DNA of 61,863 bases, counting the filler, from Stramenopiles sp. TOSAG23-2 (lineage: Eukaryota), in NCBI GenBank assembly GCA_900128395.1. It is 24 parts of 24 records of this genome, joined end to end, with 100 filler letters (N's around TTAATTAATTAA, not from the genome) between each part and the next. Parts side by side here need not be neighbours in the genome. Positions count along the whole stretch, not along the records: positions 1 to 2,494 come from LT651692.1; 23 more parts are not named here. One strand, given 5' to 3'. The notes beneath the pieces are model-generated. The model saw only the letters and a program-made list of their open reading frames with translations, did not search any database and was not told the DNA's origin. Made by a program: the position numbers and the translations under genes. Shown here piece by piece: positions 751 to 60,790 of the stretch (positions are counted from its first letter, which is position 1; each line of letters starts with the position of its first letter).

Positions 751-2494
751 ATGGGTGGTGGTGCATCGAAAAACAAAATTATACCACAATTTACAGTAAC
801 AATTGTTATTAATGGAGAAGCTATCGTAGCTTTTGCTGTATGTGAAGATGCGACATTAGCAGATGCAAGGAAAGAAATATTATTAGAAAGTGAGGAATTC
901 TCTGATTTACCTACAAATTATTATTTCAGTCGTAACAATGCGCCATTTTCAATAAGAAAAGAAAATTCACATACAGTACGTGAACTTGCTGGAAGTGATT
1001 CTAGGTTAATATTAATACCAAAAAAAACAGAAGAAAAAAATAACGAAAGCAAAGGTGATGTAGAAACGAATGATATTCCAACGAACAATCTGGAAAAAGA
1101 ACAGGAAGAGGAAGAAGCGGAAGATAAAATCGAAACTGCTTTAGACAATGCCGAAAATGCAATGGATAAAGTAGATGAAGTAAATAACACTATCATTGAT
1201 AATACAACCGAAGAAATACAAATGGTACAACAAGATGGCTCAGTGACAACAGAAAGTGAGATAAGTTTACCATCATTTATAAAACTAGACGATACTTCAT
1301 TAGCAATATTAAATAATGTTTTAGATGGTATTGAAGTAGTTGCAGAAATTATTCCATATGCACAATTATTTATTAAAACATGTAAGAATATTTACGATCG
1401 ATGTCAAGAACCAAGTCGTTTACGTGCTGAAATACAAGATTTTTTACATTTTTTAAAAATCATTGAAACAAGTATTGTAAAAGGATTAAAACAATTTTCA
1501 AATGAAGATCGGTTAAAATTAATCAATAATAAATTAATTGAAGCGGCGAAAACAATAAAAGAATCACAAAATCGAAGTACATTTAGTGCATTTTTTTATG
1601 GAAAAGCAGATCGTGAAAAATTTACAGAAATTAAGAAAGATATCATGGATACCATGATACTGGTTAATTTTACCATGCAAATTGATGCAAATGTAAATGT
1701 TGCAAAATTGATGGCAAAAGATGAGGAATTACATAGTAAATTTGAAAACATTAATACATCAGAAGATGCATTGGAAACATTATTACAAGGAAAAAATAAT
1801 GATGTGTTGAAAAAGGAGATATTGCAACATTTGAATTTGAAAGAAAATGATTTAATATTGGAATTAGATGAATTGAAGAAGCGATTGACTAAAGTGGAGG
1901 AGAACCAAGAAAAAATGGCCGAAACACAGAATAACGTAGTCAAAACACAAGAAAAAATATTGAAACAAATCGATGTTACCACCTCATTAAAAACGATTTT
2001 AGATCCACTTGATTTCAATTTAGAAATTGATGGTGCCGTTGAACGTTTTCACAATGGTACAAGAAAATGGGCTTTTGATGATTTTGATAATTGGGTTGAA
2101 ATTAAATTAAATTCACGTGTATTTCTGTTATCTGGTGGTGCTGGTATGGGTAAAACTGGTATTATGAGTATGTTAGTACGTACAAGAATGGGAATTGTCA
2201 TTGCACATCATTTTTGTAGACATGATGATAGCCGTAAACGTGATCCAAAACATGTATTATGTTCTATTGCATATCAATTAGCGGAGAAAATACCAGAATA
2301 TCGTAAGAAATTAGAAGAATTAGGATTAAGTAATGCAAGTTTAAGTGAATTAAATGTGACGGGACTATTTGATAAAATTTTAAGAGCACCATTAGCAAAT
2401 ATAAAACGACCTGATGAATTTACATCAAAACGCCAAATTATTTTAATTGATGCATTAGATGAATGTGATCATAATGGTAAAAATGATTTATTAG
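751..2494 (+). CDS. NLR-like STAND protein: myristoylation signal, beta-grasp-like domain, MLKL-NTD-like helical bundle, coiled coil, NACHT NTPase (3'-truncated)
   Basis: Starts MGGGAS. NACHT motifs are GTRKW, Walker A GGAGMGKT (2134-2157), HHFCRHDD, SIAYQLA and Walker B IILIDALDEC. Residues ~185-310 (IPYAQLF..IYDRCQ..RSTFSAFF..DREKF) resemble the MLKL N-terminal bundle. Confidence 0.85.
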
Positions 2495-2964
2495 NNNNNN
2501 NNNNNNNNNNNNNNNNNNNNNNNNNNNNNNNNNNNNNNTTAATTAATTAANNNNNNNNNNNNNNNNNNNNNNNNNNNNNNNNNNNNNNNNNNNNCATAGA
2601 CACAATGGGGTGAAAGTCCGTACTTTCAATTTAGTACACAAATATATATGCTAATATGTTATATATGGGCTATCAAACATAATTAATTGAAATAACTAAT
2701 TGTTTAAGGACTTTATCAAATCACAAAATCGTCGTTAATAGCACGTTATAGGTGGATTAGGATGATCGATAGTTATAGTTTTTTTTGTTGAAAATTGAAT
2801 TAATTATTATCCTGATACTACTAGTAGATTAGATAGAAAAAGCAAGCGGGATTAGGATAATAACAAAAGATAACAGAGGAAAGAGTTGAAAGATATATAC
2901 ATAGTAGCAGCAATTGTAATAGCAATAATAATAATCATAATAGTGATAATAATAATAAACCAAC

Positions 2965-9116: not shown

Positions 9117-10023
9117 ATGGCGTTATTATCACTGTTATTAACGTTATCGTTTGACAACAATANNNNNNNNNNNNNNNNNNNNNNNNNNNNNNNNNNNNNN
9201 NNNNNNNNNNNNNNNNNNNNNNNNNNNNNNNNNNNNNNNNNNNNNNNNNNNNNNNNNNNNNNNNNNNNNNNNNNNNNNNNNNNNNNNNNNNNNNNNNNNN
9301 NNNNNNNNNNNNNNNNNNNNNNNNNNNAAGTTGATATTGGTAACGCTTCTTCTTATTGCACAAACATTAATAGTAATAGTACGTTCACAAACGTTATATC
9401 CACCAATGGATTTTTTAGATGTTGATTGGCTAGGTGAAGGTGATAATACACCTGCACCTGTTGCAGAAAAAGCTGCGTTGTTTGATTTATGGAGATCTAC
9501 CGCTGGTGGCCATTGGAATAATAAATGGGACTTGCGTACCGATCCATGTAACGACGGTTGGTATGGAATATTTTGTGATGCAAAAGGCCATATAATAACC
9601 ATAAATCTAAGTCAAAATCACTTAATAGGATTTTTGCCAAACTCGCTTAGTCGTTTGCCGTTTTTGAGAGAGCTTATTTTAAATCATAATTTGATTACTG
9701 GAATAATACCAAAATCATATTCAAAACTAAAGAATTTAGAGGAGGTAAATTTATCTCATAATCGTATTTCAGGGCGGCTACCACGTGATTGGGGAAATTT
9801 GGAATTTATACGTATTTTGCACGTCGCACATAATGAATGGGATGATAAAATCTTACCACCTGAATTATATAAATTACAAGAAATAGGCCAAACAGACGTA
9901 TGGTTTAATGAAGATTTAACAGATCCATTAAACGCTGAGAAAAAACTCAATGGTGCTGGATACAATCATCCACCAATACAACTACAACCATCTGGTCAAA
10001 TGAATGCTGGTGCACGCCTATAA
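9117..10023 (+). CDS. Secreted or membrane plant-type LRR protein (LRRNT cap plus ~4 LRRs); 165-N scaffold gap at 9163-9327, start uncertain
   Basis: Hydrophobic leader, then the cap EKAALFDLW..W..DPC.DGWYGIFC and repeats INLSQNHLIGFLP, LILNHNLITGIIP, VNLSHNRISGRLP. Confidence 0.85.
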
Positions 10024-12960: not shown

Positions 12961-14668
12961 GATTACCATCACTCGATCTTTTCTTACTACTAAATAAATT
13001 CTTCATACCACCACCATTTTTATTTGCCATTGTATTTTTTAATGGGTTTGAATTACTTATTGTGTTTCCTCGATTATGCATCTGTGTATCGATATTGTTA
13101 ATGTCTTGATCATTTTCTTCTATATCAATTTTTTCTTGTTTATTATTTTGTTTTTTTCCGGATCTGCCGCCGTATCTTTCTTTACCTTTATTACCCCCTT
13201 TCATTTTTATACTAAAAATCGATTTATATTTTTCAAATCGAATGCCATTATAAAATCTTTTGTATTCTTCAAATGTGTTTTTACATGTAAATAATATGTT
13301 ACACAATCTGATATTATGATGAGAACATGGTTCTATGTCATTGTCATGGTTTTCTAAATCACATTGGGATGCTTTATTAGCGCTACCCAATGGTAATGTA
13401 TCCTTTCCCAAATTTGCAGTATTGCACTTGAACTGTGCTACAATATCTTCTAACTTGGCAGTGAAAGTTTTGGTTTTTTTTTTAATATCATATTTATATT
13501 TGTAATTATATCTAAGATGAAATTTAAAATCATTCTTGTTTTTTTCAAACTTAAGCTCTGTTTTCCGCACGAAAATTTCATGTGCTGTACCCCTTAAGCA
13601 TCGAAAGAGATTCTTCACATTCCCAACCGCCACCCTATTGTTTTCACTCTGATCGCATGCCTTACAATAGCAAGTACACCATTTATCTATGCCATCCACC
13701 TTTATTCTTTTCACACCACCAAGACACTTATTTAAAGGTTGGTTTTCGTATGGAGTTCCATATTGACATGGTGCATGGTTTATAACAAAAGGATCGATAT
13801 TTGATCTCTCGCATGTTGATTCATATTTTTTTATTTTTTTTGTAACAGCATCTTTCTTCCATGTTTTAACAAAACCTCTATTGCATCTGCGGCATTTTTC
13901 GACCTTATTTTTATTGCACCATTCTTCAGGAATTCCATTCTCGCATACACATTGTCCTTTGATTGGCAATGTACTAATTGAATATGGAAGTCCTAGAGTT
14001 GACCATATAGGTGATGATGATGGTGATGATGATGATTTTTTTGAAACTCTTCCCGTACAACATCGAATATTACTTGCACCAGGACACATACCTATTTTAA
14101 AATCGTCTGAGCAAGTATACTTGTTCACATCTTTACAATTACATTTTTTTGCAGAAGATGATGTTTGTGGTGTTGTTGATGGAATAAAACCATCATGTAT
14201 ACCTTGATTTGGTCTTGTAGGTGGTGATGATGATTTTTTTGAAACTGTTCCCGTACAACATCGAATATTACTTGCACCAGGACACATACCTCTTTTAAAA
14301 CTGTCTGAGCAAGTATACTTGTTCACATCTTTACAATTACATTTTTTTGTAGAAGATGATTTTTTTGAAACTCTTCCCGGTTTCGTACAACATTGTATAT
14401 ACTTATTACCTGGACATCTACCTGTTTTAAAACCGTTTGAGCAACTATATTCTTGTATGTCTTTACATTGCCCAGAACATTTTCTACGACGTGTATCTTG
14501 ACTATCTTCATTAAGTGATAATAAAGATAAGATATCATCTGTATGTTTCAACGTTGTTTTTTCTTCAACCTTTTCATGTTTTAACGCAACTGAGTGGTTA
14601 ACGAAACAAAAAAGTAATACTAGACTTAATGTCATACTTATTTCTATACTCTTCATTGTTCTCGTCAT
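12961..14668 (-). CDS. Secreted cysteine-rich repeat protein (3'-truncated)
   Basis: Signal peptide, an RRRK site, three 6-Cys modules ending G.CPG.....CCT, a CVCENG..C..C..C module and an N/K-rich tail. Confidence 0.85.
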
Positions 14669-15289
14669 ATCAATTTTATATAATATTTTTATATTTAAAA
14701 GTAAAGATAATCTTTTTCTACTTTTTAAAATGCCAAATAAATTGTTATATACTATAAAACAAAAGTTTTGAAATACGTTTGTTTGTTTTTATGAATGTAT
14801 GTTTATTTGTTTGTCTTTATTTATTTACAGTATATAACTTCATATCATGTTTGTTATTGTTTTGTGTATAGTCGTATAGTGTTATAATTAGCTAATGCAA
14901 ATAGCATTGTTACGCCAAAACTATTTTGACGCCCCTCCTTTTTTTAAAAATACGGTGAAGACACTTTCGTGCTTTCCATTTTCAGCTAGAATCCTTTTGC
15001 GCGTCCAATTATACGCTCATGCTAAAAAAATCTTCAAGCGTAGCATCGCACGCGTACACAGGCGGGCAGGCTGCGGGTCTCTTTGTACAGTAACTTTGAC
15101 TCTAGCTAGGTAATATGCTTACTTGGGCGGCGAGAGTTTCGTTTTTAAGGATAGTGCCCGAAATGTTAGGGTTTTGCACTGATAGGAGCTCTAGAGCCTG
15201 CAAGCTGGAAATCTCAGCTCCCAGAGTACAGAGCTGGGAAGACTCTGCGCTTGCTGGCAAGGCTGGCCATATTTAAAATAAATAGCATA

Positions 15290-20724: not shown

Positions 20725-21283
20725 CGGCTTCATCACCAATTCCAGGATTAAACGAAACATTCATTTCTTTTATAACATGATTGCATAAGATCGCATCTAG
20801 AATATGTACTAAACCAGTCGCTCCACATCGTGAATTAGTCAAATTTATAACGCCAATGGTATTGGATGATAAATTGAGTAACCAATCGGCAAATGCTTTT
20901 GCCCTAGCAAGCCCTATGTGAGTACCATCGACTGTTAGAACATGCGACAAACGACTGGATTGTTTGACTATGACTTTCAATGGAATTGGTGCTACTTTTT
21001 GTGCAACCAACGTGTCATGAAAAGATATTTGTGCCTTTTTCAGCATTTCTGCTGCAGAATTTTTTGTATTCTTTTTTTGAGATGATTGATTTACAGTTTT
21101 TTCAATAATACGATCAAGAAAATTATGTAAATATTTCTTAGTAATAATATCATCCTTCGTTTCATTTTTAGTTGGATTTGTTGTTACTAATTCTTTTACA
21201 AAACCACCAATTACAGTCTTTTTCCTAGCTATTTTGTAATTATCGAAAAATTTATTTCTGCTACTTTCTGTTGTTTGTTGCAT
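20725..21283 (-). CDS. Inverted fragment of an RNI-like LRR gene (probably chimeric)
   Basis: Contains the LRR INLTNSRCGATGLVHILDAI. Its last 55 nt (20725-20779) are an exact inverted copy of 22531-22585. Confidence 0.55.
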
Positions 21284-22830
21284 TATTAGACAGTCTTATG
21301 ACTGCTGGTGGTAGTGGGGATAAACCTCATATTAGCGTAAAAGTTCCACGGCGAAAATTGTCACATGGGGAAATGGATAAAATTGTAGAACTTGTTAAAG
21401 AGCGTCCGTTGCTGAATAAAATTTGCTTAAATAACTCATCTGGATGGGAAGAACCTGTTATGATGAATGGTGAAGTAGTCATGAAAGAGGATGACGTTGA
21501 ATTGAAATATCTAGATTTAATATTAAATGCTTTGTTAAAAGCAAAGGAGGAGAAAACAGCTACTTTATATGGCTTGGAATTAGAATTCGTATTGCCTAAT
21601 GATTTTGAGGCTAATAATATTTGGATCGATTTAGCAAAAATTATTCATAAACATAGAACATTGAAGACGTTAAAACTGTCGTTTAAAAGACGTAAAATTG
21701 TTATATCGCACAATATGATGGAATCACATATAGATGATGAGGAAAAAGTAATAGAAACGCTTGTTAAAAATTTACAAGGAAGTCTAGTTTTGTCTATATT
21801 AAGTTTAAAATCATGCGGTTTAACTGAAAACAACGTTTTAACGCTATTGCATGCAATGAAACATATGCAGAGTCTAAAACTCTTGGACATTAGTGAAAAT
21901 TCTATTGGATCTGATGGGACAAAAGAGCTTGCATCGCATTTAAAATATGGTAAAAATCTCATTGATTTCAATATCTTTGGTAATAATTGTCAAGATGATG
22001 GTATCATAGCAATAATAAAAGCTGTGAAAAACCATCCAAAAATACAAAATTTAAACATAGGTATGAATGACGTGACGAATAAATCTTCGCATTATATTGA
22101 AGATTTATTTCACCATAAAGAAAATTTAAGAGAGTTTCATTGCTCCTTGAACTTTTTGGGACGAGCAGTCACTAAAATATTGAAAGAAGTTGCATTCAAC
22201 CATTCGCTGAAAACATTAGATTTAAGTTATAACAATGCAACGGAATCAAGTATTCCTCCCCTATTGCGAGTTTTAAAGAAAAATGCTACGTTTGCAAAAC
22301 CAGAGCATCAAGCATTTCCTATCATAGGCTTACAACATGATGTTGCTAGGCACGCAATTGAACGAAGTAAAATTTTACATGCTACATACACCCATTACGA
22401 TCACTCTCCAGCGGAGGTTATTGCTGGAAGTCTAAATGGTAATAAGCATTTACAAGTTATTAATTTAGAGCAAAATGGGTTGACCAATAAGTTTTGTGCA
22501 ATTTTAAGCAAGGCATTAGGTAAACAAAACCATGTTATAAAAGAAATGAATGTTTCGTTTAATCCTGGAATTGGTGATGAAGCCGAACCTTTGATACGCT
22601 TAATTGATGCATTTACTTACGTAGAAACAACATATGGTAGGGATGAAATTGCATTGAATGAAGAGGAAGAGTTTAATTTAAAGTATGCTATTGCAAGAGA
22701 AAAAGAGACTAAATTATTTTTAGAAAAAATGAAAAAACAAGAAGCAGAAAGATTAGATCATGAAAAATTATTATATTTCTCAAAAGACTTTGTCGCTCAG
22801 ATGCTGATGAGTATTATTAACAAAATTTGA
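21271..22830 (+). CDS. Ribonuclease-inhibitor-like (RNI/NLRC3-type) LRR protein; true start missing
   Basis: 28-aa LRRs: LSILSLKSCGL, LKLLDISENSIGSDG, IQNLNIGMNDV, LKTLDLSYNN, LQVINLEQNGL. Confidence 0.85.
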   Translation: MFVALLDSLMTAGGSGDKPHISVKVPRRKLSHGEMDKIVELVKERPLLNKICLNNSSGWEEPVMMNGEVVMKEDDVELKYLDLILNALLKAKEEKTATLYGLELEFVLPNDFEANNIWIDLAKIIHKHRTLKTLKLSFKRRKIVISHNMMESHIDDEEKVIETLVKNLQGSLVLSILSLKSCGLTENNVLTLLHAMKHMQSLKLLDISENSIGSDGTKELASHLKYGKNLIDFNIFGNNCQDDGIIAIIKAVKNHPKIQNLNIGMNDVTNKSSHYIEDLFHHKENLREFHCSLNFLGRAVTKILKEVAFNHSLKTLDLSYNNATESSIPPLLRVLKKNATFAKPEHQAFPIIGLQHDVARHAIERSKILHATYTHYDHSPAEVIAGSLNGNKHLQVINLEQNGLTNKFCAILSKALGKQNHVIKEMNVSFNPGIGDEAEPLIRLIDAFTYVETTYGRDEIALNEEEEFNLKYAIAREKETKLFLEKMKKQEAERLDHEKLLYFSKDFVAQMLMSIINKI

Positions 22831-27076: not shown

Positions 27077-28377
27077 TTACTTTTGACCAATTTTAAAAAA
27101 GTTCAAAACCCCTGTTGCCCATGGAGATGATACACCACCATTACCACCGCTCTTATTTGTTGGAGGTGAATTACTAGTTTGATGTCCCTTCCCTCTTATA
27201 GTATGCCCACCACTTATATTACCACCTTTACCCCCAATAATTCTTCCACCTTTCACATTTTTTGGCGAATTGCTACCATCACTATTACTTAATATTTGAT
27301 TTAATTTGTTTCGTAACATATTGATTTCATAATCTTTTGCTTTAATCATGCTTCGCATATCTTGCTCATGTCGTTCACTTTGACTCAACATATTTTTCGC
27401 TAATTGACGCGCGTTGACTTCCAATTGTTTAATACGATTTGCTTTTAATTGGTCTGCCTTACGTGCTTTCTCGCGTTCTAATTCCATCGTTGCATATTTA
27501 CGCAATAATTGCCTATGTACCATCACTAATTGTTCCAAACGTTGTTGTAATGCTCGTCGTTGCTTTTGTTGAGCAACCGTTTCCGTGGAGCTACTTTGTA
27601 ACAGCTTAACTTTATCTCTTTCCTTATCTAAAGCTAATTCCAGCTCAATTACTTTTTGACACCTATTTTTTAAATNNNNNNNNNNNNNNNNNNNNNNNNN
27701 NNNNNNNNNNNNNNNNNNNNNNNNNNNNNNNNNNNNNNNNNNNNNNNNNNNNNNTGACACCTATTTTTTAAATCATTTCGTAATGCATCAATGGTTACAT
27801 TTAACTTCATGTTTTGCTCTGTTATTTCACCTATTATTACCGTGCTGCTATCATTGTCATTGCTAACACTATTATTGTTACTACTATTACTACTACTACT
27901 GTTTTTGTTTTCTACAGATGTGCCGCCATTGTGCATTTCTAATGCTTCCTCCATTGTTAAACTCCCTTCATCAACTAATTGTTGTAAATCAGCTGTCAAT
28001 GGTTTATCACCACCTGTATTGTCATTATTATCAACCTTCGATACAGCCTGACCTCCACTGCTACTAGGTTTATTATTACTACTTTCCGTCCCAACCATTT
28101 GTGCCTCTGCCATGGCTACCTTCATAGTCATGGATTCTAACTTATTACGTAAAGAATCGTTCTGCTCATTCATAATTTTAATTTCATTTTTCAATGTAAT
28201 TAAATCTTCACTATCTTGCATATATTTTCTACCTTGCTCCTCCAATTCTTTTAATTTCAAATCACGTTCTTCAATCATTTGGCTCAAGGATTTTGAATTA
28301 TCTTTTTCTAAATCAAGTTCGTTTTGTAACCGTTGTATTTCGCTGTGAAAATGATGAACTTTCAAATCAATTTTTGC
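27077..28377 (-). CDS. Kinesin-1 (kinesin heavy chain) stalk and tail, 5'-truncated; one ORF across a false scaffold gap
   Basis: LRNDLKNRCQKVIELELALD and LEQLVMVHRQL..RIKQLE match the kinesin-1 cargo-binding tail, and HTIRGKG resembles IAK/IRGGG. The 19-nt sequence tgacacctattttttaaat appears on both sides of the N gap. Confidence 0.85.
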
Positions 28378-30958: not shown

Positions 30959-31114
30959 NNNNNNNNNNNNNNNNNNNNNNNNNNNNNNNNNNNNNNNNNN
31001 NNTTAATTAATTAANNNNNNNNNNNNNNNNNNNNNNNNNNNNNNNNNNNNNNNNNNNNATTATATATGCACACATAGAATAAAAAAACAAACTTATTGGT
31101 ACTTATACAACAAG

Positions 31115-33538
31115 ATGAACGTTCAATTTATATTTCTATTTTTAATTCCACTGATTACATTCAGTGTAATTAAACCTATTGCTATTGAAGCTAATGCGGA
31201 TGAAACACGTCTTAAAGTTATATTTAACACGAGAAATTCAAAGAAAAAAGGTGATATTATTACAGGTGGATTGTATGTAGATAATGAAAAATGGTTACAG
31301 TTTGATGAAAATTCAGCATTGTTTGCAAATAACAAATGGAATTCACAAACAGCTGGTAGTATAGTTTTAATTGATACGATCGATAATATTGAAGGAAATG
31401 ATCAGTATGGAAAATATTCTTGCATTAAAAAAATATGGTCACTTGATCATGATACTAAATTGCCTTCATTTTCTACTGAAGTATGTTCATATCCATCTGA
31501 AGAAGTTGCTATCTTTAAAACAACGATTTTATCCAATGATTTGAAAGGGACTAATGGAACGAATCCAAAATTCCCGATAATTAATTTTCCATCCATATAC
31601 TTAGATGAAAGTGGCAAACACGATAATGGTATGATTGAAAATTTAGGATATGCATATTTTCATGGTCTTTGGCAAGGTCCGGTTGTAAAACAAAACCTTC
31701 AAACTTTGCCAAGATTGCCTCAAAGGCATGAAGGGCCTATTATTTTCACTGATAAAAATGGTAAAACTGTACTTCTTGGTCCATTAAACGATCCATTAAA
31801 TACAGTTTTTCAAATATCCAGCAACAACGGTAATAATAAAAAAGTATTTTCGTATGGTCCAAGTCAAATGATAGAATCATTACCCATTAATTATACATAT
31901 AGTGTCGCAGCAGTTCTTGCTCCAATCAATGGTGCAACAAATACAATACAACGTTATGGTAAAATGCTACTTGGTCATCAGGCATCAACGATGGAAGATG
32001 TAGCAAAAACAATGAAGCAATCAAGAGTTAAGGATCCTTTTGTAGAAAAAATTTCTGCATGGACTGATAATGGTGCTTATTTCTTTTATAATAATTTAGG
32101 CCAGAAAAATTTACCCCCTGCACAAATTGCTTTACCATCATGGATAAATTCATTTAATGATAATGCTGAGATTAACGTACCTATGCAATCGTTGCAATTG
32201 GATGGATGGTGGATGAACCAAACAACCTCAGCTCCAAGCAATAAATTTTTCCCTGATTGGGATGGATTTCGTAAATCTTTCTCTGGTGGGGCTAACACTG
32301 TAAATTTATTAATGTATAAAGCTTTTTTCACGGAATCGTATGATTTATTTGAAAAATATGATAAAGTACAATCACCAAAAGGTGTTTATTATCCAAGTGC
32401 TGAAGATGCATATAAATTTTACAGTGAAGTATTTGATGGATTTATAAGTTTTGGCGCAAAAGCATTTGAGACAGATTTTATGTCTGATCATTTACTACCA
32501 ACTCCAGGTTTAGCACGCAATGTTAATGGATTGCCATTGTACCATGGTGGTTTAGCAAAAGCAGCATTGGAACATTCTTTACCAGTTCAATTTTGTATGC
32601 CAACTGTATGTCAAGTTATAGCTACAGCAAATTATCCTGCAATTACTAATGTTCGCGTTTCCACTGATTATGCGACTGAAACTATTCCAGGCAATACTGG
32701 TCAAGACGGATGGGTAGAAAATTATGTCATTGGTTTACCAAGTTTGATTACATGGGCTGTTGGTGTATCACCATCGAAAGATATTGTAGTAACGACTCAA
32801 TTGAAAAAACCTATTGGAGGTATGACAAAAATTTATAAAAATTGTGAAATGGATTTTCTATTAGCAGTTTTATCAACTGGACCAGTTGGTCTTGGTGATG
32901 CACCGAATTACACAAACATAACTTTGGTGAAAACTGGAATCAGAAGGGATGGTACATTGTTAAAGCCAAGTAAACCATTAACAGGTGTTGATTCAACATT
33001 TATCCCAAGCAATCGGGCACATGGCGAGATCGGTTTTTTACCAGTAACAAAAGACGGCGATTGTAGTAATAACACTAAAACATCATGTTCTCCATCATTA
33101 GATCAAACACATACATCTATACCTTTATTTAATGATTATGCAAGCGCCATTATTGATCATGGAAAATATGTAAATGGTATTGATAATAGTAGTTACAATC
33201 GTATAAAAAAATCATTAGTAGCAACTTGGCATATGCTATTATCAATGCATTTAGGCTCATATGTTCCACCAGTTTCAGATTTTTATCCATCCGTATCACC
33301 ATCATCTCTTTCTTTAAATAACTTGGGTAGTTTTAAAGAATGGAGATGGAGTAAATGTAAAAATGGCGAACATATAGCAAAAACAAATTGCATAGTGACA
33401 TTAACAAATGGTGAAATCCCAGATGTTTCATCAGGTCCTAATCGTGCTGATGCAAATGGTTCAGATGCATATCGTTTATTTCATTTTTATCCAAACTTAC
33501 CAGTTATACCATCGGCAAAAGTACACGATGGCTCCACT
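31115..33538 (+). CDS. Secreted glycoside-hydrolase-like TIM-barrel protein (clan GH-D-like, uncharacterised family), 3'-truncated
   Basis: Signal peptide, then WTDNGAYFFY, LQLDGWW, FETDF, QFCMP, RVSTDY, LSTGPVGLGD and RRDGTLLKPSKP. Confidence 0.7.
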
Positions 33539-33718
33539 NNNNNNNNNNNNNNNNNNNNNNNNNNNNNNNNNNNNNNNNNNNNTTAATTAATTAANNNNNN
33601 NNNNNNNNNNNNNNNNNNNNNNNNNNNNNNNNNNNNNNCCTCTTTTTATAATAATAAAAGTCAACATTTTACAAAAAAAAAGACTTATTTTCTTTTTATA
33701 ACAACAACAATAAACAAA

Positions 33719-35782
33719 ATGAGTCAAAGCAATAATAGTCCTAATACCAATGCTACAGCGGGTGGTATTAGTTTTCAAGTGAATTTTGCAGAAGATAATC
33801 AACCATTAAATGGTCCACCAAAATATAGTTCTGAAGGGACTGCGAAAAGGGTATTAGCAGATTATAAAAATATGTACAATAAATTGTATAAGCAGTTTCA
33901 AAAAGTTACTATTAAATGTCAAAAATATCGTGAAGAAACCCATGATTTACGCAATGCTGCGGAGACTACAACTAAGCAAATGGAATATTTAACCAGGAAA
34001 ATTGATCATTTAACAACGGAACGTAATAATTTTAAAAGTGAGAAAGAAAAAACTGAATTAATTTTAAAAAAATTAGATCATAAACTAGCAGGTGGTGCTG
34101 GTGGACAATATTTAGCAGATAAATATAAGGAACTAAGACGAAGAAACAAAACATTGAAGGATAAAGTGAAATTGCAACATGATGTTATTTCAAGCCAAGA
34201 AGGTAATTTATTACAAGCATCAAAAGAAATTGAAGTATTGGCACGTGCATTAGAAATACGTTCCGAAGAGTTAGAATTAAATCCAAATAGTACGGTGGAA
34301 GATACCTTACTTTATCAAGTTGCAAGTTTAAAACAACAAATTCAAAACAAAGATGATGAACTTACACAACGAAGTGAGGAGATCAATAACATGTTGCAAG
34401 ATAATATACGTTTAAGCAATGAATTGAAAAGCGTAAATGAAGTGAAAAATGCAGTTGAAGCGCGTTTGGTTACGGTACGTTCCGAATGCGAAGATGCGAA
34501 AAAAATAGCAGAAACATCAAATAATCGCACAAATGAGTTAGAAAAAGAACGTACAATCATGTTGGATTATATTAAAGAAATGCAAGCGAAAATTGGTGAT
34601 TTGGAATCTGAAAATGCAAGTGATAATAAACGTAGCAATAATACAATTAAATTATTGGAAAGTCGATTGGATGCTATGAAAGGCCATGATGGTGATGTAA
34701 CTTCCAAATTAGCACTTGCAGAGAAACGGATTGAACAAATGCGACATGTGCAAAAATTAACGGAACAACGTTTATCAGAGGAACATGTTAAAAATTCAAA
34801 TTTGCAAGAACATATTGACTTGCAAAGTAAAGATTCTGTTACACAATTAGCAGCAACAGATGCATTGAAAGAGAAAATTGTTGTACTGGAAGATGAAAAA
34901 AATGTAACAGATAGAAAATTAGATTTGCTGAGAAAAACACACGAAGAGAAGGATTTAGCAATGGAAGACCTGGTGAAAAGTTTAACTGTTTTAAAAGGAA
35001 AAATAAATGATCTTTCATTAGATAAAGAAACGACTACTGCGCGTTATCGTAGTGAAATGGAAGGCATTATGTCTGAATTGGAAAAAACAGTATTAGACAA
35101 AGAACGATCCGAATCTACGATGAGACAAGCCGTTGATAAATATGAAACATTGATAAAAGAGAAAAATGATGCAGAATCAAATTTGAAAATTGCACAAGAT
35201 GATGTGTTAATGCTGCGAGAAAATAAAGGCATGTTGCAAAAGACCATGTTGGAGCAATTAAATGGTTTAAGAAGTGAAGTATCACGTTTAACCGTCGAAC
35301 GTGATGATGCAGTTGAAGAATTATTACGTGTAAGGGAGGAAAAAGATAGAGTGGAAATTTTAATGAATGCAACTAAAGCAACAAATGCATTATATAAATC
35401 ACCACCAACATCTGCAGAAAAATCTAGTAACAACCGTAACAGTAGTCACAAGTTTAATTCAAGCTCGTACATGTCTTCTAGGAAATATGAAAGTAGAAAT
35501 ACAACGGAACATATGGAACATGTAAGATCAGCATTGAAAAAATATGGCAACAATAATGACAACAACATCAGTCGTAGTAATACTAGTAGTATTAGTCACA
35601 ATAATAATAATAATTTAAAAAATAATAGTGGTCGAATTCATATAAAACGTAGTGGATCTGTTATCATTGAAGGTATCGATAACAATACTACTAATAATAA
35701 TAACATATCATCTTTACGCAAATCTGGTTTTAGTCCAACATTAATTGATTTAGCAGCAGCCAATGATGATTCCTATCGGTAA
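33719..35782 (+). CDS. Long coiled-coil protein of unknown function
   Basis: 687-aa intronless ORF with an extended heptad E/K/L pattern and an N/S-rich tail. Confidence 0.9.
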   Translation: MSQSNNSPNTNATAGGISFQVNFAEDNQPLNGPPKYSSEGTAKRVLADYKNMYNKLYKQFQKVTIKCQKYREETHDLRNAAETTTKQMEYLTRKIDHLTTERNNFKSEKEKTELILKKLDHKLAGGAGGQYLADKYKELRRRNKTLKDKVKLQHDVISSQEGNLLQASKEIEVLARALEIRSEELELNPNSTVEDTLLYQVASLKQQIQNKDDELTQRSEEINNMLQDNIRLSNELKSVNEVKNAVEARLVTVRSECEDAKKIAETSNNRTNELEKERTIMLDYIKEMQAKIGDLESENASDNKRSNNTIKLLESRLDAMKGHDGDVTSKLALAEKRIEQMRHVQKLTEQRLSEEHVKNSNLQEHIDLQSKDSVTQLAATDALKEKIVVLEDEKNVTDRKLDLLRKTHEEKDLAMEDLVKSLTVLKGKINDLSLDKETTTARYRSEMEGIMSELEKTVLDKERSESTMRQAVDKYETLIKEKNDAESNLKIAQDDVLMLRENKGMLQKTMLEQLNGLRSEVSRLTVERDDAVEELLRVREEKDRVEILMNATKATNALYKSPPTSAEKSSNNRNSSHKFNSSSYMSSRKYESRNTTEHMEHVRSALKKYGNNNDNNISRSNTSSISHNNNNNLKNNSGRIHIKRSGSVIIEGIDNNTTNNNNISSLRKSGFSPTLIDLAAANDDSYR

Positions 35783-46528: not shown

Positions 46529-47614
46529 TTGAGATAAAACCCATTCAACATCAGTATCAATTGGTGGTGCTAATTTTCTAACAATACGTTCATAATAATT
46601 TACATATCGAATTTGTGATGGTATGGTAACACCTTTCTCATTATGTGTTCTTCGTTTTGCAAATAGGCGTGTTGCTTCATCTGCAGTTTTTGCAGTGCCA
46701 CTGTGTACTAAATATGCACATACCATCAAGCCAGTTCGACCTTTTCCAGCTTTGCAGTGCACTGCTACGGTATTACGATCATCAATTCTTAAAAAATGAT
46801 CAATACTATCACAAAATGGTTTTATCATATTAAGTGGACATGGATTATGATCATCAAATGGCCAATGTGCCACCGCACCATTGAATGATTCTGGGTCGTA
46901 CTGTCGTTCTGAGCATAAATTGTATATTTTAAAATGATTTAGATGATAAAATTTAAAAAATCGTTGTACTTCCTCCATGGGATTTCGATACATGCCTTCC
47001 AATGCTGATGAAGGAAAACCCATTGCAATAATTTTACGTGTTATGTATGTTAAATCAAGATCAAAACCATCCCTAATAAATCTTATTTTTTTCAAAGATA
47101 CCATTTGTCTAAAATGTCTTACCAGATTATCAGCAGAATGCCCTTTTGTAGTATGTAATTGACTGTATATAATAGCCGTTACACGTTGATCTTTCAATGC
47201 ATATTTATACACTGAATTTTCTTGAAAATTCATTTTGTTTTCCTCATGCTTTTTTTCTTCGTTTACTATACCACCATTCGTGCCTTCTGGTTTTGTCTCT
47301 GGAATAGTTTCAATCTTAATATTATTTATCTCAACTTCTTCTAAATAACCTAAAGTTAATAATTTATTACCTAATATAATAGCATCTTCCCTTGAACTGG
47401 CTTCTAGTCCTTTTATCAAAGCATCGACTACAGCTGTTCCGGTAAATTTCTTTTGGCCTATGGTCATTAAAGTTTGACGAGTTTGCGACATACTAATTTT
47501 CCTACTTCTACCAGTAGTAGGGTTTGTTATTGTTTCTTCTACCATTCTTTTACAATAATTTGTAAAAAACGAAGCGCTCCCGCGTTCCGTATCTGACCTA
47601 CAAGACCAAAACAA
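46529..47614 (-). CDS. DEP-domain plus PTEN-type phosphatase (partial)
   Basis: DEP motif FTGTAVVDAL..SREDAIILGNKLL..GYL..F.ENSVY. PTEN motifs VS..K.RF..DGFDLDLTYI, IIAMGFP, IYNLC.ER.Y, PFDDHNP, HCKAGKGRTG and GVTIPSQIRYV. Confidence 0.92.
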
Positions 47615-47648
47615 AAGAAGTTTGGCATTTTGAAGTTGTTAGAATAAC

Positions 47649-51576: not shown

Positions 51577-51703
51577 ANNNNNNNNNNNNNNNNNNNNNNN
51601 NNNNNNNNNNNNNNNNNNNNNTTAATTAATTAANNNNNNNNNNNNNNNNNNNNNNNNNNNNNNNNNNNNNNNNNNNNATTTTCAAATATTTGGAAAATAT
51701 TAT

Positions 51704-53209
51704 TTGTTTCAATTATATACGTCAGAAATATTGGAGTCTATGAATCAAATAAATAATTTATTTACTTTTTATAGTTGTTCATTGCCGGTAGAAGTGACGT
51801 CGATTTTATGTATTGCTCTTAGCATCGATAGTTTTCATACAGTTAGTTTTATGGTACGAAAAAATAATCCCAATAGAAGAGACAAACAAATTATTATTGA
51901 CACGATTGTTGACTTTTTATGTATTGCTTTGCCATTGATGATTACGTGGTTTGGATACCGAATTCCAATATCAATAGGAGAAATGATGCAAGTTAGTATC
52001 TATCCAGCATTCACGATATTAATGAAATTGGATACTATATTAGAAGAAATCATTCGATCTCGTACCGCTTCAGCAACGTTAAAAGCACAAGACCAAGCCG
52101 CTACGATAGAAAGTAGAAGACGGAAAAGTCTGTTTCGAGGATTAAGCCATTATGAAATTGGCGAGCAGCAACAACTATTTGTTCCATATTATGTTCATCT
52201 TGGGGCTGGTATATGCAAATTTTCATTTGGCATTTTATTTTTAATCGTAGCAATAGTACAATTAGCGTTGGTGTCATCTGTTAATGAATCTACATGCGAA
52301 GTAACGTTATGGGAAAGTTGTATCGTTAAAACACCATTTTGTGGAACCATTTTTACACCAGCATGTAATTGTGTTGTTTTAAATGTACGAAAACATAATT
52401 GGACAGAATTTCCAAGTGAAATATATAAGATGAATGCATTAAAAGTTATGCGGATTAATCATGGGCCATTGAAAACGCTGCCTAGTAATATAGATGTGAA
52501 ATTTGCAAAATTAGCTACTTTAAATTTAAATCACAACAAATTAATTGAAGTACCAGATAGTTTAGGGAACATGAAGTGTAATCAATTGAAATTAGATAAC
52601 AATAACTTGAATACATTGCCAGACAATGTTTGGGGGAATGAACATATCTTTTGGTTGGAAGTAGATAATAACAATATTTCAACCATTCCAGAATCAATTA
52701 GCACTTCAAAATCCTTGACCGAATTTCTGATAAGTAACAATAGTCTATATGAATTACCAGACGCAGTATTTGCAGTAAAGATGGTAATGTTTTATGCTGG
52801 TGGAAATAATCTAAAAAACATACCTGAAGCAATTGGCGAGGCAACATCTCTTCGATATTTAAGATTGAACAACAACAATAATATTACGATTATACCAAAC
52901 GAAATAAAAAACTTAATAAACTTAGAAGATTTTGATATTAGAAACAATGATATTAAAATCCTGCCTGATGGCATCGAATCTATGAGCGCACTGAAAAATT
53001 TTTATCTTCATGGTAACCCAATTTGCTCAAATGGATGGATTCAAAAAGCTTCCAAAAAAACCCAAGATTTTGTCAATCAAAATGGCGCGGGCTGTGTTGC
53101 GCAATGTTCGATGTATTGCCAAGATATATTTAAAGACGACCAGTATTGCGACAGCGACTGTAATTCGGCAGTGTGTGATTACGATGGAGGAGATTGTAAA
53201 ACGGAATGA
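51704..53209 (+). CDS. Multi-TM, Cys-cap, LRR, LNR (Notch) domain protein (5'-truncated)
   Basis: Several hydrophobic helices, CIVKTPFC..PACNC, about 9 LRRs (L.L..N.L..LP), LHGNPIC, and a C-terminal C..YC..DQYCDSDCNSAVCDYDGGDC matching LNR. Confidence 0.88.
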   Translation: MFQLYTSEILESMNQINNLFTFYSCSLPVEVTSILCIALSIDSFHTVSFMVRKNNPNRRDKQIIIDTIVDFLCIALPLMITWFGYRIPISIGEMMQVSIYPAFTILMKLDTILEEIIRSRTASATLKAQDQAATIESRRRKSLFRGLSHYEIGEQQQLFVPYYVHLGAGICKFSFGILFLIVAIVQLALVSSVNESTCEVTLWESCIVKTPFCGTIFTPACNCVVLNVRKHNWTEFPSEIYKMNALKVMRINHGPLKTLPSNIDVKFAKLATLNLNHNKLIEVPDSLGNMKCNQLKLDNNNLNTLPDNVWGNEHIFWLEVDNNNISTIPESISTSKSLTEFLISNNSLYELPDAVFAVKMVMFYAGGNNLKNIPEAIGEATSLRYLRLNNNNNITIIPNEIKNLINLEDFDIRNNDIKILPDGIESMSALKNFYLHGNPICSNGWIQKASKKTQDFVNQNGAGCVAQCSMYCQDIFKDDQYCDSDCNSAVCDYDGGDCKTE

Positions 53210-59393: not shown

Positions 59394-60790
59394 GGGGGGG
59401 GGTGGCAACCAATGGAGGGTGTATGTTCGTAGGCACTGATTCTATGTTTAATTGTACTAGGTGTGTTTTAACCAATTGTCGAGCCAGTTCATATGGCGGG
59501 GCTCTAATAGTAGAAAATGGTGGTTATTCGTTTTTACTTCATTCGAATATTTCGAAAAATGAGGCTGAATATGGCGGCGCTCTATTTGCACATGAAAATG
59601 GTAAAATTGCACTTGAATCATGTAGTCTCCTAATGAATCATGCATACTCGAACGGTGGTGGTTTATACGTGTGGACTTCTGGATTTGCAAATATTTATAA
59701 AACAACTGTTGAAAACAATACAGCAAACGAGGGAGGTGGACTTGCTGCTGATTCTGCAAGTATTAGTGAAATTATACTTAGAAACTCAGTATTAAAAAAT
59801 AATGTTGCAAATACTGGAGGTGGCGCGAAGGTTGGCTGCAGCAGTTGCGGGGCCGGCAAGGACAAAATAATAATACTTGATAGCATAGTAAAAGATAATA
59901 CGGGTGGTTCAAGTGGAAATGTAAACATTTTATTGTCCAGTTCAATTTTAATATTGATAAATGTGGATATTAATGGGAAGATTTCTGGGGCAAGCTCTAC
60001 AAAATCGTGCTCTACTGCTCCCACACAATGCACCGACAATGGCTACACCAATGCGATATGCACCACCCGTCAAAATCCCGACGAAGGTGTAATATGCGCT
60101 CAAAATTGTTCAACAGGTTACAAAAAAGCTGGAACTTTCAATCACACATGCGTAGTATGCTCTGCGGGCACCTATAATCCTTTATGGAATCAACACCAAT
60201 GTCAACCATGGTCCGATTGCATCAGCAGCCAGTACATCTCTATAAACGGCACAAGCAGCTCTAACCGTGTATGTAGTAGCTGTGGGTCGGGGAAATATTC
60301 TGCTTCTGCCAACACCTATTACTGTACGGACTTGACGAACTGTGTGGCAGGTGAGAAAATAGGTTCCAATGGCACAAGCAGCACCGACCGTACCTGCGTA
60401 GCATGCACAACTGGAACATTCTCTACCGGAACCAACCGGAATGCATGCACGAATTGGACCACATGTAACGTTACGACCGAAGTGGAAAGCAGCGCTGGTT
60501 CTACGACGGCGGACAGAGTTTGTGCAACAGTAGGAAGTCCATCGCCAACAGGAAGTTCGCCAGACGCTCCATCGCCATCAGATAATGCACCACCACCAGC
60601 AGGTGCGCCATCCCCAATGGATATTAGTCCTTCGCCAGCAGATTCAGCAACTACCACCGGAGCACCCAACTCCACAAGTGTTCTCTCTTCTTTACAGAAT
60701 AAGATAGAAGAGCTGAGTATCGGTAGTTGCAATCAGCCAGTCTGGTTTACAACCATGTTTCTGATTGCATGGAGTGTCGTACAATGTTAA
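59394..60790 (+). CDS. Surface protein with a beta-helix (GGA/L repeats), TNFR/Cys-rich repeats, a Pro/Ser stalk and a hydrophobic C-terminus (5'-truncated)
   Basis: N.A..GG(A/G)L repeats, C..C..G(T/K)(Y/F)S....C..W..C..G...SDRVC repeats, a PSP-rich linker and a GPI/TM-like end. Confidence 0.85.

Follow-up and report, generated by a model that had tools for sequence, protein, structure and literature searches.

The window analyzed here, a stretch of 61,863 nucleotides from Stramenopiles sp. TOSAG23-2 (GenBank assembly GCA_900128395.1), begins with a contig (LT651692.1, positions 1-2494) whose single open reading frame most likely covers the first two-fifths, counted from the 5' end, of the gene encoding an all-in-one receptor of the NLR (nucleotide-binding leucine-rich repeat) type, belonging to the STAND (ATPases of signal transduction that have numerous domains) class. 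Judged from its sequence, the encoded protein, P0001, is a real NLR-like protein of the four-helix-bundle type. We lean, by somewhat more than an even judgement, to a reading in which a WD40 part senses a ligand, the NACHT domain oligomerizes and the clustered MLKL-like bundles damage a membrane. By analogy with known systems such a receptor would serve in cell death or antiviral defense.

A NACHT domain, with WD40 repeats in relatives

The initial annotation, made from the DNA alone, had read in this frame a NACHT NTPase (nucleoside triphosphatase) with the motifs GGAGMGKT, HHFC and IILIDALDE, and this was borne out: the Pfam family NPHP3_N matched aa 436-575 with an E value of 2.3e-24 (86.9 bits against a cut-off of 24.8) and all three motifs are in place (Table 1). 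From these matches, which are far beyond chance, we regard it as secure that the open reading frame encodes a NACHT-type NTPase. The loss of the sensor-side C-terminus at the contig end, also claimed earlier, was found as described, as contig 1 stops at 2494 and an artificial spacer follows from 2495.

The missing part can be read from relatives. P0002, a protein of 1596 aa from a public assembly, can be aligned over the full 581 residues (45% identity) and continues through the rest of the NACHT domain into at least 11 WD40 repeats. WD40 was matched in three of the 12 aligned relatives, P0002 included, and P0006 ends, in the alignment, with what looks like the beginning of a WD40 repeat. Full-length relatives appear to end in two WD40 propellers, and we infer the sensor of the window protein from them. 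Besides P0002, eight relatives at 41-80% identity are built in the same order: an MG start opens the protein, a conserved domain some 85 aa long and an acidic linker that varies come next, and a conserved helical region, a coiled coil and the pre-NACHT motif lead up to the NACHT domain.

The NACHT-WD40 chassis has 108 relatives, and the named ones include fungal HET-E-1, coral NACHT, TIR and Prymnesium ubiquitin-like-domain (the UniRef name) proteins; none of the 108 is named nephrocystin. Their partner domains are varied, with domains of effector or lipid-binding type (HEPN_DZIP3, TIR, PX, FYVE and RelA_SpoT-like) and an unannotated N-terminal domain in locus L002. Shuffling of N-terminal domains on one chassis is typical of NLR-type receptors. 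The pre-NACHT motif, too, occurs in relatives with other N-terminal domains, in L002 and in Prymnesium P0165. Neither of these was retained as a full relative: P0165 shares the pre-NACHT motif and NACHT only, and the part common to L002 is the NACHT-WD40 chassis only. L002 (57-4672) lies on a eukaryotic metagenome contig of higher GC content, where the pre-NACHT motif, NACHT and WD40 are spread over several frames, and it has a different N-terminal domain from the window protein, about 270 aa long and without a Pfam match.

Sequence and fold of the helical bundle

Before the NACHT domain a helical region had been placed at nt ~1303-1680 and interpreted as an MLKL-type four-helix bundle. The region is indeed present, with the MLKL_N match lying slightly downstream at nt 1342-1719, and the motifs quoted for the start and the end of the bundle are both there (Table 1). 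The MLKL type itself stood in part: MLKL_N was the sole Pfam match of the region and a bundle was predicted, but the score stayed below the cut-off and the fold match was unspecific.

We followed the bundle along three sequence-based lines. In the whole-protein Pfam scan MLKL_N matched aa 198-323 at E 7.9e-5 (profile positions 2-126 of 142), and with aa 175-365 alone it was the sole Pfam family listed up to E 10 (E 5.6e-6, 26.4 bits). HeLo, Helo_like_N, SesA, Goodbye and RPW8 were absent from the Pfam matches listed both for the whole protein and for aa 175-365. Distant family members match MLKL_N as well, P0041 at E 2.5e-4 (28% identity in the bundle region) and P0079 at E 1.4e-3. Furthermore, a family profile of the bundle only, made from 19 sequences and run against 177,635 distinct solved sequences, gave six MLKL sequences at ranks 1-6 of the 39 listed (E 0.026-0.031), with the NRG1.1 CC-R domain and mouse MLKL further down the same list. 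A language-model search of a protein atlas gave, as the third line, a top cluster scoring 0.95 with 204 of 256 features shared, and MLKL_N is found in 36% of the 59 members of this cluster. Against the solved chains, a search with the single sequence returned only Hook3, a coiled-coil chance match (E 1.5), and a three-sequence profile only an S-layer protein on the linker (E 0.051). As all three lines of sequence evidence converge and no competing family came up, we consider it probable that the bundle is homologous to the MLKL/HeLo/CC-R class of bundles. It is basic, with an isoelectric point of 9.1.

The AlphaFold model of aa 175-365, computed with an alignment of 27 sequences, is a compact up-down four-helix bundle (predicted local distance difference test, pLDDT, 66.7; predicted template modeling score, pTM, 0.52). 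Its helices run at about 201-218, 226-248 and 252-274, with a long helix 4 from 284 and a short helix (277-282) between helices 3 and 4, a feature which, according to passages of PMC9815663, MLKL and HeLo-like domains have in common. The check proposed with the initial annotation, AlphaFold followed by Foldseek, thus yielded a four-helix bundle and no plain coiled coil, but Foldseek gave it no match at E <= 1e-3. In the same Foldseek search the NRG1.1 CC-R domain stood at ranks 4-5 with E about 0.5. As compared in VIA, the model aligns colinearly with AtMLKL3 (Z 8.7, root mean square deviation (rmsd) 2.0 over 106 residues, identity 9%), human MLKL (6zvo; Z 9.1, rmsd 3.0 over 113 residues, identity 16%), mouse MLKL (Z 8.2, rmsd 2.8 over 93 residues, identity 17%), NRG1.1 CC-R (Z 8.2-9.1, rmsd 3.3-4.1 over 104-113 residues, identity 13-15%) and the coiled-coil (CC) domain of Rx (Z 10.1-10.3, rmsd 2.2 over 100 and 2.5 over 105 residues, identity 8-9%), and a Z under about 13 is, according to the tool's own warning, common for unrelated helical bundles.

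The bundle also occurs in other architectures, in P0046 (SAM_TNK, bundle and the start of a P-loop), P0068 (1571 aa, ankyrin) and P0075 and P0076 (divergent P-loop). SLATT_6, a bacterial two-transmembrane effector family, gave weak matches below the cut-off over the bundle region of P0055 (E 2e-3) and P0077 (E 2.7e-4).

Predicted self-association

After the bundle the AlphaFold model continues with brace-like helices (315-331, 337-346 and 351-361) and a long coiled-coil helix (365-406). When four copies of aa 196-420 were predicted together they scored 0.58 against 0.00 for the best control, with a partner pLDDT of at least 50 and runs sharing at least 28% of contacts. This passed a mark which in calibration was reached by 21 of 30 solved same-chain pairs and by none of 23 solved single chains. 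The confident predicted interface consists of aa 230-249 and aa 297-328, and the latter stretch holds the family-invariant residues I298, M302, F307, T308, Q310 and L327. The prediction supports the view that the bundle and the brace would together form an oligomerizing unit.

The N-terminal part: probable lipid anchor, ubiquitin-like domain and linker

The initial annotation had overlooked the Met-Gly start, the ubiquitin-like domain, the acidic linker and the internal position of the bundle. The protein starts with MGGGASK, which fits the N-myristoylation pattern of PROSITE, namely Met-Gly, a small residue at position 6 and a residue at position 3 that is neither charged nor bulky. An MG start is found in 27 of the 30 family N-termini and 23 of the 30 fit this PROSITE-style pattern, counts that are not independent as these N-termini are related to each other. 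It is likely, as predicted from the Met-Gly motif, that the protein carries a lipid anchor. One contig from an RNA library departs from the window upstream of 775, where it reads ...ATGGGGAAAAAACAAACA, that is MGKKQT, an N-terminus also seen in the fragments P0043 and P0082. The sea therefore contains, side by side, close variants or paralogues whose third residue is Lys.

The following aa 11-92 are modeled with confidence (pLDDT 82-87) in a beta-beta-alpha-beta-beta layout. With a model of 435 aa as query, Foldseek matched this part to ubiquitin, SUMO, ISG15 and UBX with a probability of 0.96-1.0 and E 0.02-0.13, the target template modeling score being 0.37-0.64, and 0.23 in one two-domain USP7 row. 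TBK1, which took the top rows of this search, was dismissed for an rmsd above 30, and the matches that remained were ubiquitin-like only. On this model we are confident that aa 11-92 form a ubiquitin-like domain. The same N-terminal domain heads proteins with TIR_2 (P0057, P0074), LRR (leucine-rich repeats; P0086), SAP (P0072) and NPHP3_N-KH-WD40 (P0078), found by the profile at E 4.5e-12 to 6.2e-4 among 1.84 billion proteins searched, and it may, from this distribution, be a shared adaptor of immune-type proteins. P0066 was grouped with these relatives that bear the domain in other protein contexts.

Between the ubiquitin-like domain and the basic bundle lies a linker with a net charge of -21, whose length varies across the family. 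It is followed, directly before the bundle, by an additional conserved helix, h0, which has low pLDDT in both AlphaFold models; L179, S183 and L187 are nearly invariant in the family alignment.

Occurrence and host

An exhaustive profile search of 1.84 billion representatives with the N-terminal module, NACHT left aside, gave 61 proteins at E <= 1e-3, mostly fragments. The module is real but rare. A locus scan of metagenomes gave two loci only, L001 and L002. L001 is a contig of 2.4 kb in which an unrelated open reading frame (1709-2374), bacterial-looking by eye, comes after the family gene, and we treated this contig as chimeric. P0030 looks chimeric too, with a phage-integrase fragment joined to a family fragment.

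Parts of the stretch are found in marine metagenomes (15 studies among the 20 listed matches that contain some of it), and contigs from two marine metatranscriptome studies contain it as well. The source labels of the relatives are those of EukProt, and one such label bears the name of a MAST-4 stramenopile. Genes on other contigs of the window code for ordinary eukaryotic proteins: a kinase, an EF-G-type elongation factor, part of a class II tRNA synthetase in keeping with threonyl-tRNA synthetase, an EML-type propeller, CRAL/TRIO, RRM and Sina. It is reasonable to take the host for a marine unicellular eukaryote. The unicellular eukaryote of the initial annotation is in keeping with the EukProt relatives, the marine metagenomes and the eukaryotic genes of the other contigs.

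Gene model and coordinates

The window consists of 24 contigs of about 2.5 kb each, in decreasing order of size and joined by artificial spacers, so that genes on either side of a spacer are not genomic neighbors. Contig 1 has 750 nt of AT-rich non-coding DNA before the coding sequence (Table 1). A marine RNA-library contig overlaps 2434-2493 and extends beyond 2493 with the frame going on; its loose end, read by eye, is QCIREHFLEL, the family consensus after NDLL. Another such contig of 1235 nt is colinear over 982-2231, and hence there is no sign of an intron there. A tblastn search detected no second copy of the open reading frame within the window (next best E 1.2), and an Rfam scan of the window gave 0 matches. 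The upstream non-coding part (1-756) had zero depth from two RNA runs and some depth from a DNA run; as the RNA runs are contigs, the missing depth is no evidence of a transcript boundary.

Table 1. Features of contig 1 and its bordering spacer (nt, positions in the window; aa, residues of P0001)
Feature	nt	Strand	aa	Basis or remark
Truncated coding sequence P0001, 581 aa	751..2493	+		First ATG past in-frame stop; runs off contig end
N-terminus MGGGASK, myristoylation-type motif (Gly2, Ser6, Lys7), further basic Lys9	751..771	+		Pattern of family N-termini
Predicted ubiquitin-like beta-grasp domain	781..1026	+	11-92	AlphaFold pLDDT 82-87; Foldseek
Acidic linker, poorly conserved, predicted disordered	1027..1275	+	93-175	pLDDT 25-43
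Conserved extra helix h0 (LDDTSLAILNNVLDG...), directly before bundle	1291..1344	+	181-198	Helix in both AlphaFold models
MLKL_N-like four-helix bundle	1342..1719	+	198-323	Pfam, family profile, protein-atlas cluster, VIA
IPYA...NIYDRCQ			201-219	Motif search
RSTFSAFFYGKADREKF	1573..1623	+	275-291	Motif search
Brace-like helices and long coiled-coil helix	1693..2001	+	315-417	AlphaFold model
Conserved pre-NACHT motif SLKTILDPL..F.LEIDGAVERFH.GTR.WAF	1984..2076	+	412-442	Nearly invariant in family
NACHT-type STAND NTPase (NPHP3_N), N-terminal part	2056..2493	+	436-581	Pfam; cut by contig end
Walker A P-loop GGAGMGKT	2134..2157	+	462-469	Motif
HHFC	2206..2217	+	486-489	Motif
Walker B IILIDALDE	2437..2463	+	563-571	Motif
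Artificial spacer N44-TTAATTAATTAA-N44	2495..2594	.		Marks end of contig 1; same spacer type between all contigs

Elsewhere the window holds two more runs of N, at 9163-9327 (165 N) and 27676-27754 (79 N). Among the other genes are an LRR and Notch LNR protein (51680-53206), a TNFR-type cysteine-rich repeat protein (59396-60787) and a DEP and dual-specificity phosphatase protein (46529-47638). Four open frames have no Pfam match at E <= 1e-4: 31061-33538 (826 aa), 33641-35779 (713 aa), 12962-14788 on the minus strand (609 aa) and 21229-22827 (533 aa).

Proposed mechanism and alternative explanations

Taken together, we propose that the lipid anchor and the nearby lysines would hold the resting receptor at a membrane, where the WD40 sensor known from the relatives would bind a non-self or danger ligand. 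The NACHT domain would then oligomerize, as is established for the STAND class. Oligomerization would gather the basic bundles via helix 2 and helix 4 with the brace, the contact predicted in silico, and the clustered bundles, by analogy with MLKL, HeLo/HELL and CC/RPW8, would upset the membrane, so that the cell dies or is arrested, for instance upon viral infection.

A number of observations weigh against this reading. The MLKL_N score of 26.4 bits is below the curated Pfam cut-off of 27, the family is matched by just 4 of 27 and 3 of 12 family members, and the profile match to solved MLKL chains at E 0.026 is not significant alone. Confidence in the bundle models is moderate (pLDDT 60-67) and Foldseek with the bundle model gave 0 matches at E <= 1e-3, the best being E 0.2. 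Designed helical repeat proteins reach a VIA Z of 10.5-11.8, equal to or above the MLKL-type matches, and as unrelated designed proteins score as high, the fold evidence is consistent with an MLKL-like bundle and not specific to it. The self-association run used four copies where the calibration had used two, and the family alignment was not among its input. The WD40 repeats of P0002 are ordinarily divergent by eye with no evident repeat homogenization, the PADLOC defense models gave no match for P0001 and one row for P0002, on its WD40 region, and contigs from RNA libraries are no proof of transcription. Finally, the bundle is internal: it starts near aa 199, behind the MG motif, the ubiquitin-like domain, the linker and h0, so that the window protein has no free first helix at its extreme N-terminus. 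Passages of PMC9815663 state that canonical executioner bundles use a free N-terminal helix and counsel caution on function given an N-terminal extension, and the internal position is therefore a real departure from canonical executioner domains. The bundle is N-terminal in two distant relatives, P0068 (aa 8-202, with ankyrin repeats later) and P0070, a predicted protein which may be a fragment.

In one alternative explanation the protein is an NLR-like STAND protein whose helical region is a non-lytic oligomerization or adaptor module, with signaling through the ubiquitin-like domain to partners and the receptor itself leaving the membrane intact. An unspecific fold match and an internal bundle would both suit it, the predicted homotypic interface indicates self-association only, and the presence of one ubiquitin-like domain on TIR, LRR, SAP and NACHT-KH-WD40 proteins is what a shared adaptor would lead one to expect. 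However, three independent sequence-based searches gave MLKL_N and no other helical family, the bundle stands at the N-terminus of P0068 and perhaps of P0070, and a basic bundle together with a likely lipid anchor suits action at a membrane. We hold this explanation to be a doubtful though serious one. The protein might also be a housekeeping scaffold of the membrane or cilium resembling NPHP3, its myristoylated N-terminus and coiled coil targeting it to the flagellar compartment with no immune role. Its P-loop domain belongs to the Pfam family named for nephrocystin-3, the MG start is conserved, and according to passages of PMC7202064 NPHP3 is N-myristoylated, forms a coiled coil over aa 83-207 and bears repeats at its C-terminus; because NPHP3 shares the myristoylation and the coiled coil, the scaffold deserves weight. 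Yet the relatives end in WD40 and not in TPR, no chassis relative has a nephrocystin name, the chassis is joined to many alternative N-terminal domains, and 61 matches in 1.84 billion are unlike a conserved ciliary gene. The evidence thus opposes the housekeeping NPHP3/NWD orthologue which the initial annotation had named as its refuting case, and we think a scaffold role improbable. That the frame is an assembly artefact or the fragment of a dead gene could be suspected from a contig of only 2494 nt in a highly fragmented assembly and from the chimeric state of some related contigs (L001, and P0030 with its integrase part). The frame is, however, open over 581 codons, some ten independent relatives (41-80% identity) repeat the whole architecture colinearly, and independent metagenomes and RNA-library contigs cover it, which leaves an artefact hardly credible.

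The membrane-damaging receptor proposed above can be carried further. An abundant uncultured marine protist may kill itself on infection through a membrane-anchored receptor, as a counterpart of necroptosis or the resistosome outside animals, plants and fungi, and the ubiquitin-like domain may act as a homotypic adaptor, in the way of death folds, linking TIR, LRR and NACHT proteins into a protist immune network. We offer this wider picture as speculation and think it unlikely as it stands.

Relevance and novelty

If the proposed reading is true, receptor-triggered cell suicide would exist outside animals, plants and fungi, and the logic of the death module would reach free-living marine plankton. 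Virus-induced mortality shapes marine plankton populations. A lipid anchor and a ubiquitin-like domain lying upstream would amount to a new means of positioning or gating a bundle, and the compact domain of aa 176-330 would be directly testable for membrane activity.

Receptors of the bundle-NACHT-repeat type are familiar from fungi and, in a form with NB-ARC, from plants. According to passages of PMC9815663 and PMC12881547, animals (MLKL), plants (CC/RPW8 NLRs) and fungi (HeLo/HELL) have bundle executioners that either form part of an NLR-type receptor or are under the control of one, and passages of a survey of 67 protists report no homologues of necroptosis regulators (PMC7539657). A partial literature search, with supplements such as S1 Table of PMC9815663 outside it, turned up no account of a protist NACHT receptor bearing an MLKL-like bundle. 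The novelty lies in the host group, in the divergence of the bundle family and in the prefix of myristoylation motif and ubiquitin-like domain.

Comparison with known systems

The arrangement is most readily set beside the fungal all-in-one NLRs (HeLo, HELL and MLKL_NTD-like bundles), with which the window family shares the order four-helix bundle, NACHT and WD40. In passages of PMC9815663 and PMC12881547, fungal N-terminal bundles, basidiomycete MLKL-likes included, are joined to NACHT/NB-ARC and WD40/TPR/ANK; from the same passages, the short helix between helices 3 and 4 is a likeness to the fungal bundles and the extra helix before helix 1 a likeness to the basidiomycete MLKL-likes. The NACHT-WD40 chassis is, moreover, related to proteins named HET-E-1. 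On the other hand, the host is not evidently a fungus, being marine and with its closest relatives from EukProt and marine metagenomes; about 195 residues (the myristoylation motif, the predicted ubiquitin-like domain and the acidic linker) precede the bundle; and the bundle family is highly diverged and small (61 matches), with no HeLo, Helo_like_N, SesA or Goodbye match in Pfam.

To vertebrate MLKL the bundle has its best sequence match, both by Pfam and among solved chains, as well as a colinear structural alignment at 15-17% identity, and it shares brace-like helices after the bundle and a predicted self-association via helix 4 and the brace. Unlike vertebrate MLKL, activation would be by the fused NACHT-WD40 part and not by a pseudokinase phosphorylated by RIPK3, and the window bundle is not N-terminal and has a likely lipid anchor. 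The plant NRG1/ADR1 (CC-R/RPW8-like) and CC-NLRs (Rx) likewise combine a helical bundle in the N-terminal region with a STAND NTPase and a repeat sensor, and in VIA the bundle model aligns with Rx CC at Z 10.1-10.3 and with NRG1.1 CC-R at Z 8.2-9.1. In contrast to them, the window family has NACHT in place of NB-ARC and WD40 in place of LRR, no RPW8 match in Pfam, and a predicted ubiquitin-like domain upstream.

Like NPHP3 the protein has an N-terminus of the myristoylation type and a coiled coil, and its P-loop falls in the same Pfam family; it differs from NPHP3 by WD40 for TPR, by the additional ubiquitin-like and MLKL_N-like domains, and by the absence of a nephrocystin-named protein among its 108 chassis relatives. 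The coral HEPN_DZIP3 NACHT-WD40 proteins, finally, have a chassis 30-35% identical to that of the window family, and the one scanned, P0099, is ordered in the same way as effector, NACHT and WD40. The coral host is an animal, unlike that of the window protein, and the coral effector is a predicted HEPN domain where the window family places a helical bundle.

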